A stretch of DNA of 27,225 nucleotides from a virus (IMGVR_UViG_2541047770_000002), one strand, 5' to 3'; numbered from the stretch's first letter, positions 1,963-4,785 are shown. Notes: generated by a model from the sequence alone, not told the origin. Made by a program: numbers and translations.

Positions 1963-2037
1963 AGTGGTTAACCTCCGGGGAAGGTGAAAAGACGTGAGGG
2001 GATAACGCAGAACAGCCGCTACTGGCGGCTGTCTGTA

Positions 2038-2295
2038 CTATGATTTGTCGCCGTACTCGCTTTTTATTTGCTCTTCAGCCTGCTCCAGCCACATCTCCAG
2101 ATCGTCAGTATCGAGGGCATCAATCTCCCCCGGCTGAAACCGGAACCATCTCGCCAGCAGCCCCTGCGCCTGCGTCAGCGCCCTGGTTGCTCTCACCCAT
2201 CCCCGTGATGAGCTGAAATCGTTTCTGTAACTGCAGGTAATCAGCCAGATCCATATTGTCGAGATCTTCCGGGAGAAGACCAGTACTGCGGGCAA
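2038..2295 (-). CDS. Second-frame ORF overlapping tail assembly chaperone (candidate frameshift extension, T-like)
   Basis: 85-codon ORF overlapping 2120..2295 of the chaperone gene in the +1 frame; acidic C-terminal tail; located between chaperone and tape measure as in conserved G/GT arrangement. Confidence 0.35.
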   Translation of the reverse strand: MPAVLVFSRKISTIWIWLITCSYRNDFSSSRGWVRATRALTQAQGLLARWFRFQPGEIDALDTDDLEMWLEQAEEQIKSEYGDKS

Positions 2296-2455
2296 TCAGC
2301 GGTTCGTCCCAGTCTGCCGGGTTTTTGCTGATTTTGCGCACCTGCTTCAGGTCTTTTACCGTCAGGCGTTTCAGTTCAACCAGCTCAATTCTGGTGCCTG
2401 CAGCAGTGGTGAAGGGATAAGACAATTTAAAAGTATCGGATGGGGTCTGTGACAT
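2120..2455 (-). CDS. Tail assembly chaperone (G-like)
   Basis: 111 aa, ATG at 2455 with AGGAG 7 nt upstream; position between tail tube and tape measure; overlapped by second-frame ORF. Confidence 0.55.
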   Translation of the reverse strand: MSQTPSDTFKLSYPFTTAAGTRIELVELKRLTVKDLKQVRKISKNPADWDEPLIARSTGLLPEDLDNMDLADYLQLQKRFQLITGMGESNQGADAGAGAAGEMVPVSAGGD

Positions 2456-2531
2456 GATTGTGCTCCTGTGTAAGTTCAGGGCAGTATGTCGGGAGAAGCG
2501 CGTGACGGATATTAAAGGAGATTAAGAAGAA

Positions 2532-2545
2532 GGGGCCGGAGCCCC
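2532..2545 (-). terminator. GC hairpin GGGGC-CGGA-GCCCC followed on minus strand by UUCUUCUUAAU; possible intrinsic terminator or attenuator inside tail operon
   Basis: Perfect 5-bp GC stem with 4-nt loop 7 nt downstream of the stop of ORF 2553..2834; T-rich tract follows in the minus-strand direction. Confidence 0.3.
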
Positions 2546-2552
2546 TGTGATG

Positions 2553-2834
2553 TCAGCAAGTGCGAAACCCCTTGCAGTTACGCAGGAAAGCGATGAGAAG
2601 CGTCTTTCCCTCAGATTTGCCGATGCCGGAGAACCAGTGGTCGGGAGGCTCCCATGCTTCAATCAAATCCGCCAGTTTGCGGGCCTTTGAACGTGTGCAG
2701 TCAATCGGGTCATTGGTTTTACGGGTATTAAAAAGGGTTTCCACCCCCGGAATATCAAGGAGGGTAAACCACGTACCATTTGACATGCCCAGTGCCGCAC
2801 ATCGTCCTCCTTTATCCGTCAGTTCAACACTCAC
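2553..2834 (-). CDS. Hypothetical tail-operon protein
   Basis: 93-codon ORF (GTG start at 2834 with GGGGG upstream, or ATG at 2786) filling the gap between tail tube and chaperone on the operon strand; no recognisable motif. Confidence 0.4.
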   Translation of the reverse strand: MSVELTDKGGRCAALGMSNGTWFTLLDIPGVETLFNTRKTNDPIDCTRSKARKLADLIEAWEPPDHWFSGIGKSEGKTLLIAFLRNCKGFRTC

Positions 2835-2836
2835 CG

Positions 2837-3358
2837 TCAGCCCCCGATATTGATACGGTAGTCAGTCAGTTGATCAACACCGCCGACCCGGAAGATGTTG
2901 GCCAGATAGTCCAGTTGCAGCAGCTCTTCACCATCCAGTACCTGTCTGATATACGTGCAGGTGAAGCTACTGGAGAACTCGGCGTTCTCGTGCTGTTTGA
3001 ACGTCCCCAGCGGGTTCTTCTTGAACATAATCGTCAGGAAGGTGACCAGCGGGATTTCGTCAATCAGCCCCTGCGAGCTGTAGCGCTGGACGCTGGAACG
3101 ACACTGCAGTGCCAGCGACCTGTACGGGTTCGCGGCAGACAGCATCGCATCGCGGTAAAAGCTGTTCCATTTGATTTCGCCTTCCAGTTTGTCAAAACCA
3201 GCCGGGAGTTCCACCTTACCCACCATCCCCAGCGCCTTGTGTTCCTGCATAATCATGGAGACATCGGGGAGTTTAACTTCCTCAGCCCGTCCCAGCAGGT
3301 TAGTACCATCCAGATAGATGTTGGCATTCGTGATGCGGTTTATCTCAATCTTTGACAT
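2837..3358 (-). CDS. Phage tail tube protein (contractile tail)
   Basis: 173 aa, start ATG overlaps sheath stop (TGATG); immediately downstream of sheath gene; size and position typical of Mu M / P2 FII-type tube proteins. Confidence 0.7.
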   Translation of the reverse strand: MSKIEINRITNANIYLDGTNLLGRAEEVKLPDVSMIMQEHKALGMVGKVELPAGFDKLEGEIKWNSFYRDAMLSAANPYRSLALQCRSSVQRYSSQGLIDEIPLVTFLTIMFKKNPLGTFKQHENAEFSSSFTCTYIRQVLDGEELLQLDYLANIFRVGGVDQLTDYRINIGG

Positions 3359-4785
3359 CAGTTGCCCCCTTTCAGGGTTAACAGGTATTCCGAGGTGATC
3401 TCAGTCTCAAACGTCAGTCGCTCCAGCGGCGGTGGTGGCGTATATTTGTAGCTCAGCAACAGGTGCCCGGCGGCCAGCTCCGTCTCCGGATTGCGGGCCG
3501 GATCAAACCAGCAACGGAAGCCCAGTACCGCACCATCACCAGTCATTTTGCGACCGTAGGCGTTGACCGACTCCGTCAGTGCATCAATCAGCGCCTGAGT
3601 AATCGGCATGTCGATGTACTGCTGGCTGAAATAACGAATGGACTCGTTGATCACATCACCGGTGCGGCGAACGTTCTCAAAGTTACGCATATGGGTGACC
3701 GTTGGCCATGCTGCCGTCCGGTTACCCCACAGACGAAGGCCGCTGCCGTAACTGCTGAATACCGTGGTGATCCCCTGTTCGTTAAGCAGGTTCACCTCAC
3801 TCTGCGGGTCATCAATCATCGCGGACAGCTGGCGCTCCACGCCGGTGATCCCCAGAATCTCCTGATTGGAGGATGACCACCAGTAGCCCTTGTCCAGATC
3901 GACTCTGGCACGCAGACCTGCTGCACGCTGGCTGAGCGGCTCCAGACGCTCTGTGTTTGTCACCGGGTCATATACCTTCACATGCGGATAGCACAGACGG
4001 ACGCGGTCGGAGCTGGTATTGAAGTTGATGGTGCCTTCCGGGCCACGACCTGCCAGAGCCTGTGCAAAGGTGGTACCGACAGGCGCATCAATGTAGGTTA
4101 CCGCGCCCAGCTTCTCTGCCATGGCGATAAGCTCAACTGCGACACTCTTCTGGGTGCAGAACACCGGCGCAATCAGAATTTTGGCGAAATAGCCGTACAG
4201 GTTGAAGCTGTCGTTAAGCAGCTTCATGCCGGTTCGGTTTCCGGCGCTGTTCACCCCGCCGATGATGTCCGCCGCAGTCACCTTCGACGGGTCCGCGTAC
4301 TCATAGCTCACCTTCACGCTGCCACCGGCCTCAATAGCCTTGCCCAGGTTCGTGAGCACACCCGCCTGCGCATCAACACGGTAGTCCGTGTTCGCCGTGT
4401 GGGAGGTGCTGCCTTCACTGTTTTTCACCACCACATTAGCGACAACCGGATGCGCCAGTCTGGCCTGCCCTGTCGATTTGTCAAAGGTAACCACCTCATC
4501 CTCGATCGCCGTTTTATGTTTCGCCGGGTCGAGGACGTTAATGACCAGAACGGTACCTGCACCATGGTCATAAATCGCATCCAGCGCCTGCGGAATGGTA
4601 AAGCCGGTGAACTGGCTGCCAAATGCCGCTGCGTCTTTCTCAGACAGGCACTGTACCAGCGTATTGACATCCCCCATCGGGGCGGTACCAATCAGGCCAA
4701 TAACGGCAGATTTCACCGTTTTAACCGGGCGGGCACCGTTTTCCACCTCAATGGTTTCGGGACCATGCAGATAGTTAGCTGCCAT
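3358..4785 (-). CDS. Phage tail sheath protein
   Basis: 475 aa, GGAGG 6 nt before ATG at 4785; size, position ahead of tube gene and sequence character match Mu L-type sheath proteins. Confidence 0.85.
   Translation of the reverse strand: MAANYLHGPETIEVENGARPVKTVKSAVIGLIGTAPMGDVNTLVQCLSEKDAAAFGSQFTGFTIPQALDAIYDHGAGTVLVINVLDPAKHKTAIEDEVVTFDKSTGQARLAHPVVANVVVKNSEGSTSHTANTDYRVDAQAGVLTNLGKAIEAGGSVKVSYEYADPSKVTAADIIGGVNSAGNRTGMKLLNDSFNLYGYFAKILIAPVFCTQKSVAVELIAMAEKLGAVTYIDAPVGTTFAQALAGRGPEGTINFNTSSDRVRLCYPHVKVYDPVTNTERLEPLSQRAAGLRARVDLDKGYWWSSSNQEILGITGVERQLSAMIDDPQSEVNLLNEQGITTVFSSYGSGLRLWGNRTAAWPTVTHMRNFENVRRTGDVINESIRYFSQQYIDMPITQALIDALTESVNAYGRKMTGDGAVLGFRCWFDPARNPETELAAGHLLLSYKYTPPPPLERLTFETEITSEYLLTLKGGN

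Follow-up and report, generated by a model that had tools for sequence, protein, structure and literature searches.

A conserved UUU_C element as candidate +1 frameshift site in the gene for the tail assembly chaperone of a BcepMu-like Escherichia coli prophage

The window analysed here, i.e. the whole stretch of 27,225 nucleotides, comes from a virus (IMGVR_UViG_2541047770_000002); it shares 99.7% identity in this segment with Escherichia phage PhiKM, which is classified as a Bcepmuvirus, and the segment occurs at a coverage of at least 80% in 632 of 5,426 complete E. coli genomes (641 with any match). Our subject is its tail assembly chaperone gene together with an open reading frame (ORF) that overlaps the 3' end of this gene in the +1 frame, an arrangement for which a previous sequence-only reading had raised the possibility of a programmed +1 frameshift. 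Comparison with related phages and prophages indicates that the overlapping ORF does encode an extension of the chaperone, and it points to a Phe codon followed by C as the place where some ribosomes would probably change frame. The features concerned are as follows (lengths of products in amino acids, aa).

2120..2455, minus strand: tail assembly chaperone, frame 0, 111 aa, the short product (ORF list and translation; stop TGA at 2122-2120)
2213..2434, minus strand: TAC_7 domain, aa 8-81, common to the short and the predicted long products (Pfam coordinates; frame-0 synonymous enrichment)
2215..2221, minus strand: proposed slip site CGA_UUU_C (invariance in relatives, limits set by stops)
2038..2295, minus strand: open +1-frame ORF (TTG at 2295; stop TAG at 2040-2038)
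2041..2214, minus strand: +1 stretch of 58 aa predicted to be translated after the shift, SSSRGWVRATRALTQAQGLLARWFRFQPGEIDALDTDDLEMWLEQAEEQIKSEYGDKS (conservation, +1 synonymous enrichment)
2197..2199, minus strand: invariant +1 Trp codon TGG, first conserved residue of the extension (82 unique sequences; alignment A3)
2059..2157, minus strand: GpE-like segment, homologous to P2 E', PF06528 (Pfam, hhalign, phrog_10636)
2127..2131, minus strand: run of five G (G5), the shift site first suggested, part of Pro-Gly-Glu (CCG GGG GAG) in +1 (comparison with relatives)

The chaperone gene and the overlapping +1 frame

The 111-aa protein matches PF10109 Phage_TAC_7 ("E, or 41 or 14") over aa 8-81 with an E-value of 5.5e-21 (74.8 bits, cutoff 25) and is encoded between the tube and tape measure genes, which upholds its initial designation as a tail chaperone. 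Its frame-0 C-terminal tail is Gly/Ala-rich and poorly conserved. NCBIfam gave zero matches for either the chaperone or the extension. In the PGAP annotation, under the name 'phage tail assembly protein', and in phage records, e.g. as 'tail protein E' in PhiKM, the 111-aa (or 104-aa) protein alone is annotated at the locus, and none of the four records inspected (PGAP, PhiKM, KP12 and BcepMu) contains a joined coding sequence or a fusion. It should be mentioned that the Burkholderia gladioli prophage protein Bg_9562, also a Phage_TAC_7 member, was reported to be a secreted antifungal effector (PMC5581363), an unexpected moonlighting claim for a homologue of a tail chaperone.

Both ORFs are located on the minus strand (2455-2120 and 2295-2038), and the second was correctly assigned to the +1 (= -2) frame of the chaperone: in descending coordinates, chaperone codons start at positions equal to 1 modulo 3 and those of the second ORF at positions equal to 0 modulo 3. 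The ATG ascribed to the latter at 2295 proved to be a misreading, as 2295-2293 reads TTG. No ATG occurs in the +1 frame before the stop of the chaperone is reached, which leaves TTG 2295 and GTG 2196 as the only candidate starts. An alternative-frame ORF of 85 codons is in itself unremarkable in a window with chance antisense ORFs of 137-294 aa, and it rises above chance because it is conserved in relatives.

These relatives were 41 loci from GTDB species genomes and 80 loci from IMG/VR, and further BcepMu with 12 variants of its clade, a clade of Pseudomonas phages, one Ralstonia phage and one Citrobacter prophage. They amounted to approximately 85 unique relatives in four clades (Enterobacterales, BcepMu, Pseudomonas and Ralstonia phages), part of which were gathered with single-protein scans. 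Fused proteins of 135-194 aa (P0004-P0009, P0016, P0023, P0028, P0041, P0060 and P0113) and the loci L016, L034 and L126, where the frames are joined at differing places, were left out as evidence and treated as products of indels or assembly errors; several of them originate from error-prone assemblies. Several prophage copies of symbionts, from Symbiopectobacterium and Apirhabdus (L042, L044, L045, L025 and L034), are interrupted by early stops or indels, either in the chaperone or in the extension, with a 26-aa chaperone and a 121-aa run-on extension among them, and look like decaying prophages.

In all relatives but two indel-bearing assemblies, the +1 frame encodes F-x(2-5)-W-...-LLARWFRFQP(S/G)E(I/L)D.L..(D/E)(D/E).E.WL..A..QIK, which takes the form ...LLLVLK(I/M)QPSEIAELDMDDYWHW... 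in BcepMu and Pseudomonas phages. The overlap is conserved likewise: the extension was in +1 in the genome, IMG/VR, BcepMu, Ralstonia and Pseudomonas loci, always overlapping the chaperone 3' end. Counted from the Phe codon, it is 55-61 aa long in three of the clades; in BcepMu, where an insertion of about 20 aa relative to the enterobacterial family is seen, it reaches 75-79 aa. The -1 frame was considered as an extension and rejected, having stops and no conserved peptide.

The peptide kept across the four clades is homologous to E' of phage P2. On the predicted 138-aa fusion, Pfam places TAC_7 at aa 8-82 and a GpE-like segment at aa 100-132, the latter matching PF06528 Phage_P2_GpE with an E-value of 0.0015, below the Pfam cutoff; 16 of 18 representative extensions of the family match PF06528, the best of them at 6.4e-6. 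When the family profile was compared in hhalign with the part of P2 gpE+E' that is encoded past the frameshift, the probability was 84.7% (E-value 6.7e-6), and phrog_10636 matches both the window peptide and P2 E'. As to the frame-0 part, P2 gpE itself matches PF10109 with an E-value of 1.5e-12; hhalign of the chaperone alignment against the single P2 gpE sequence gave no match, and Pfam profile coordinates were used in its stead. Elsewhere, NCBI names such +1 ORFs 'GpE family phage tail protein' and lists them as separate products of 45-52 aa.

Selection and stop codons around the junction

For 82 unique family sequences we compared the numbers of distinct codons and distinct residues per codon column in both frames, after which every observed single-base variant was classed as synonymous or non-synonymous in each frame and set against the possible changes. 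Alignment A3 consisted of 18 sequences from the four clades. In the TAC_7 region up to Phe80, frame 0 had 109 synonymous and 178 non-synonymous variants, with 124 and 407 possible (p = 1.6e-5), and the +1 frame showed no enrichment (56 and 228 observed, 122 and 406 possible). Between the +1 Trp codon (2199-2197) and the position of the G run, the enrichment was found in +1 (36 and 57 observed, 45 and 159 possible; p = 0.005) and not in frame 0 (15 and 78 observed, 53 and 151 possible). Variants synonymous in one frame only numbered 46 for +1 versus 99 for frame 0 in the domain and 36 versus 15 in the overlap (Fisher p = 2.3e-6). The Trp column itself contains one codon and one residue in all 82 sequences and is invariant in A3. 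Individual substitutions have the same character. The Arg codon in RWF-R-F occurs as CGG, AGA or CGC in +1, equivalent to Pro, stop or Ser in frame 0, and CTG CTG is replaced by TTA CTG, CTA CTG or CTC CTG, with Leu-Leu kept in +1 and Ala changed to Val, Thr or Pro in frame 0. As judged from these codon comparisons, purifying selection moves from frame 0 to +1 between F80 and the +1 Trp six codons on.

Stop codons bracket the same interval. A +1-frame TGA stands four codons ahead of the Phe codon in Ralstonia and Pseudomonas phages (L128, L129) and five codons ahead of it in locus L008; in frame 0, TAA is present at F+9 in the Citrobacter prophage, whose extension is intact, and a stop at F+15 in the L041 group, with many others well upstream of the G-run position. 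Because of these positions, a homologous shift would have to fall between F-3 and F+8. With fair assurance, we hold that a shift somewhere between codons 77 and 88 links the two frames.

The UUU_C element and the competing readings

Within F-3..F+8 the only invariant element is Phe TTT followed by C. TTT was present in 83 of 83 unique sequences and TTT followed by C in 76 of 76, and nine other two-fold codons with conservation of at least 90% all vary synonymously, the minor form occurring in 7-40 sequences. In the BcepMu and Pseudomonas phages Phe is otherwise preferably encoded by TTC (73:17 in BcepMu structural genes, 13:1 in Pseudomonas phage pieces), and an exact-pattern scan of IMG/VR returned 115 contigs with ...CARAAACGATTTCA (TTT) and none with ...CGATTCCA (TTC). 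In the other clades the corresponding column, eight codons past the Asp of LAD(Y/S), reads (T/G)C(C/T)_TTT_CG(C/T) in the 12 BcepMu-clade variants; the Pseudomonas clade has GTG_TTT_CGG or ACG_TTT_CAA, and the Ralstonia phage has CGA_TTT_CTG. In the window, the site would comprise CGA in the E site (2221-2219), UUU in the P site (2218-2216, Phe80) and C at 2215. CGA precedes TTT in 71 of 76 unique sequences and CGG does so in 2. This rare Arg codon (2219-2221, minus strand) is near-invariant in enterobacterial and Ralstonia sequences, and another invariant Arg of this gene uses four codons; the conservation of CGA may reflect an effect of the E site on slippage.

A forward slip at this element would work as follows. 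Most ribosomes would stay in frame 0 and produce the 111-aa chaperone, and a minority would move +1 at CGA_UUU_C, where the P-site peptidyl-tRNA-Phe (anticodon GAA) would leave UUU and re-pair on UUC at 2217-2215, a G-C replacing a G.U pair. Decoding would resume at AGC in +1 and end at TAG 2040-2038, giving MSQ...LQKRF-SSSRGWVRATRALTQAQGLLARWFRFQPGEIDALDTDDLEMWLEQAEEQIKSEYGDKS of 138 aa, with TAC_7 at aa 1-80, a linker of about 15 aa from ...F-SSSRGW onwards and, at the C-terminus, a helical segment that is GpE-like. If lambda G/GT and P2 E/E+E' are a guide, the short and the long form would both bind the tape measure protein, and the C-terminal segment of the rare long form would recruit tube subunits. 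We consider it likely that a +1 slip of tRNA-Phe on CGA_UUU_C (2221-2215) yields this 138-aa TAC_7 + GpE-like protein; we infer ribosomal slippage by tRNA-Phe, its (presumably low) efficiency and the function of the long form from sequence comparison.

A number of observations speak against so specific a reading. The comparison narrows the shift to F-3..F+8 at best, and any codon there could be the site; in the five linker codons between Phe80/UUU_C and the Trp neither frame is preferred, and the sequences share phylogeny, so that the counts overstate their independence. The frame-0 A-site codon in the window and most Enterobacterales relatives is CAG, which is not rare (the BcepMu- and Pseudomonas-clade variants have CGC, CGT or CGG, save L156 with its CAA, and so does the L041 group). 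For downstream structure, 13 diverse sequences were folded with RNAalifold, which returned -3.25 kcal/mol, no covariation and no element less than 60 nt from the site, and no Shine-Dalgarno (SD)-like element was found at CAG AAA CGA TTT CAG. Beyond UUU_C, nothing accounts for programming. Since neither an SD-like element nor a conserved 3' structure is present, shifting is probably inefficient; a low rate would suit a G/GT-type ratio, although such a fit does not count as evidence. The window peptide, moreover, is sub-threshold for PF06528 (E-values 0.0015-0.035, 14-18 bits, cutoff 23). To these may be added the ATG codons that many relatives have 12-17 codons past the Phe codon, which might serve for translation of the +1 ORF from a start of its own.

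Such an independent GpE-like gene of 45-58 aa, starting in the window at GTG 2196, is in our view unlikely, although gene callers and NCBI do annotate a separate 45-52-aa 'GpE family phage tail protein' (see also phrog_8286) and an SD-like GGGGA lies a few bases upstream of GTG 2196. Start codon positions are not conserved, SD-like sequences are few, and four loci (L020, L021, L082 and L112) lack any ATG, GTG or TTG in the part of the open +1 frame that precedes the QP.E motif. The invariant +1 Trp is upstream of most candidate starts, the ORF is without exception in +1 and overlapping the chaperone, and P2 E' is annotated solely within the E+E' fusion from the E start (PMC3091744). With its ATG gone and no positionally conserved start in its place, the suggestion that the second ORF is simply an overlapping gene is disfavoured by the comparison.

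A +1 fusion at another codon of F-3..F+8 is less probable still. A conceivable site in the window is GGG_A (2206-2203), directly ahead of the Trp, where tRNA-Gly(UCC) could re-pair to GGA; the five codons that separate UUU_C from the Trp, being without frame-specific selection, do not discriminate. This codon, however, varies in relatives (GGG, GGC, AGC, GGA, TTC and others), and UUU_C alone is invariant in all clades with conservation at the synonymous site.

The G5 run, at which the shift had first been placed, is a very improbable site. The run CC-GGGGG-AG is indeed at 2127-2131 in the final chaperone codons (GCC GGG GGA GAT TGA), and a +1 or Mu-like -2 shift on GCC_GGG_GGA there would add about 29 acidic residues (EIDALDTDD...), close to the acidic tail of some 30 aa that had been predicted, through a junction reading ...VSAG(G)EIDALDTDDLEMWLEQAEEQIK, with one Gly after +1 and two after -2. 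In favour of it, the verified -2 site of phage Mu is also a G5 run (CGG_GGG_CGA), frame-0 ribosomes of the window phage reach the run 2-3 codons ahead of the stop, and tRNA-Gly could re-pair after either move. The comparison with related phages nevertheless shows the run to be unconserved or beyond frame-0 stops. In a sister clade with 104-aa chaperones (KP12, L007-L015 and L017), frame 0 reads GAG GTG GTT TAG ATT TCA GCC GGG GGA GAT TGA; frame-0 ribosomes never reach G5 there because the TAG stands upstream, six codons before the run, and the +1 ORF is nonetheless preserved. In most other relatives the G run is missing, the sequence being CCG AGT GAG (QPSE), and in the window the run is accounted for by the +1 codons for Pro-Gly-Glu. 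Purifying selection acts on +1 already about 23 codons upstream of it, and the PF06528/P2 E' homology also begins upstream, at LLARWF, so that a G5 product would miss LLARWFRFQP, the first third of the GpE-homologous segment. The +1 direction of the original proposal is thus borne out by the extension frame across relatives and by the switch in selection; the G5 site is not, and with it falls the support for the predicted tail size.

It should also be noted that G5 carries one-base indels in public assemblies (L016 and L126; proteins P0007 and P0009), which yield what look like in-frame 138-aa 'fusions' (...SAGEIDAL...) or leave the extension broken. Errors of sequencing or assembly are the probable cause, but the indels could be real slippage mutations.

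Other candidate sites were rejected. An RF2-like shift at GTT_TAG with an upstream SD-like GAGGTG in the 104-aa clade fails because substitutions in GCT GCT GGC GAG (L015, L017, L035, L037 and L041), which keep the +1 residues and alter those of frame 0, show +1 to be in use further upstream. A run of four G in GCA_GGG_GCT, taken as a common site, is unconserved, with GGC in many relatives. On the same ground, the DNA likeness between P2 GGT AAG GTG GTC GGT TTT TTG and family GGC GAG GTG GTT TCG was taken to be coincidental.

Finally, the view that the overlap is a chance ORF without product, long alternative-frame chance ORFs being common in the window, is effectively refuted already and deserves next to no credence, given a +1 peptide conserved across clades whose chaperones share just ~30-45% identity, synonymous-biased substitutions, and Pfam and HHalign homology to P2 E'.

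Gene order, known systems and significance

The neighbouring genes are as follows.

3358-4785, minus strand: tail sheath gene
2837-3358, minus strand: tail tube gene (PF04985)
2553-2834, minus strand: ORF of 93 aa, function unknown (phrog_1239)
ATG at 1962, minus strand: tape measure gene

The chaperone is located between the tube and tape measure genes as is the P2 pair, with one extra ORF, that of 93 aa, intercalated. The latter (phrog_1239) is followed by a terminator-like hairpin at 2531-2546 (minus strand), AGGGGCTCCGGCCCCT + TCTTCTT. As its position is empty of genes in Citrobacter (L132) and in BcepMu, it looks like a moron-type insertion in the tail operon. Directly after the +1 ORF stop, a stable stem-loop at 2012-2035 (minus strand), ACAGCCGC-CAGTA-GCGGCTGT, sits in the 75-nt spacer ahead of the tape measure ATG (z = -3.3 for a 91-nt fold). 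KP12 retains the stem and has a changed loop. Lacking a U-tract, it is not a classical terminator.

The closest known counterpart is P2 gpE/gpE+E'. Both systems have PF10109 in frame 0 and a PF06528-like segment in the alternative frame, in the same order and at the same location between an FII-type tube gene and the tape measure gene. The P2 products measure 91 and 142 aa and those of the window 111 and, as predicted, 138 aa; TAC_7 and GpE occupy aa 7-85 and 104-139 in P2 E+E' versus 8-82 and 100-132 in the window fusion. In either case the shift would take place at the end of TAC_7 on a Phe UUU codon, F84 of P2 (at about profile position 77) and F80 of the window (about 74). P2, however, shifts -1 on T_TTT_TTG, whereas the window would shift +1, without a U6G heptamer and through single-tRNA P-site slippage on UUU_C; moreover, the window extension scores below PF06528 gathering. 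On the strength of these parallels, the locus would be the P2 gpE/gpE+E' equivalent of a BcepMu-like E. coli prophage, in a forward-slipping variant. Since the proposed +1 site is within about three profile positions of the -1 site of P2, it is suggested that the slippery Phe codon is ancestral and that its direction was switched through changes in flanking bases. In Pasteurella phage AFS-2018a (L130, MH238466, ~868-1400) we observed a TAC_7 chaperone with an unannotated homologous extension, VAWWFGWNVSEIEQMTLDELSTWLEQANRQIK, in the -1 frame; both directions of shift are for this reason to be counted within one protein family.

Frameshifting at this gene pair, +1 and -2 included, is textbook knowledge. 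In bacteria, few programmed +1 sites are well supported, prfB being the main example, and the window site differs from that of RF2 (prfB) in having neither an A-site stop nor an SD-like element 3 nt upstream. In tailed phages, -1, -2 or +1 shifts are used at the chaperone pair, with -2 in phage Mu (PMC5009743). Mu gp41/Mu_56 resembles the window pair in its chaperone upstream of the tape measure gene, its long form in the +1 (= -2) frame and the G5 run near the chaperone stop. The differences are that Mu gp41 belongs to PF23746 Gp41_Mu (E-value 9e-35) and is marginal for PF10109, the one Pfam family reported in the window protein, that the G run is unconserved in the window family and past the frame-0 stops in relatives, and that the Mu extension is not GpE-like.

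In the mode of slippage, the proposed site is comparable to the influenza PA-X site, UCC_UUU_CGU, at which +1 slippage of tRNA-Phe was shown by mass spectrometry (PMC3498833), and to UUU_CGN, proposed as +1 motif in amalgaviruses (PMC5052127). In all of them UUU in the P site is followed by C, tRNA-Phe can re-pair to UUC, and no 3' structure is obligatory. The likeness is closest in (T/G)CC_TTT_CG(C/T) of the BcepMu clade and GTG_TTT_CGG of the Pseudomonas clade. The window differs by its bacterial ribosome and biological context, by the common CAG in the A site and by CGA in the E site. Schwartz & Curran are said to have found, in 1997, that UUU-pyrimidine sites are prone to +1 shifts in E. 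coli. In the papers searched, a +1 UUU_C site is nowhere described for this chaperone family, though earlier mention is possible (Xu et al. 2004; Baranov et al. 2006).

In BcepMu itself (AY539836), gp41 is the TAC_7 homologue and gp42 the +1-frame GpE-like ORF. GenBank, however, pairs gp42 with gp43, which has no counterpart in the window, as analogues of lambda G/T through slippage. Homology and conservation would rather join gp41 to gp42 by way of a +1 shift on TCC_TTT_CGC (L005, 4603-5364). Extending the proposal to the lineage as a whole, in hosts of Enterobacterales, Burkholderia, Pseudomonas and Ralstonia, we lean, by a little, towards a conserved (CGA/UCC)_UUU_C +1 site that makes the long chaperone without a stimulator across BcepMu-like and related myophages and prophages. 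The phenomenon as such was already known; the novelty lies in the particular +1 site with its conservation, in its resemblance to the PA-X motif and in how widespread mis-annotation is.

For annotation, this means that the long form is missing from the four records inspected or, elsewhere, that its extension is listed as a separate ORF, and that the BcepMu record pairs the wrong ORFs. The conserved UUU_C with the near-invariant rare CGA in the E site may offer a simple natural E. coli system for the study of P-site slippage and E-site effects. If the proposal is true, (CGA/UCC)_UUU_C would be the bacterial counterpart of the influenza PA-X/amalgavirus UUU_CGN class of motifs. Homologous pairs would then use -1 (P2, Pasteurella AFS-2018a) or +1 at a near-identical place, the strategy being kept while the mechanism drifts.

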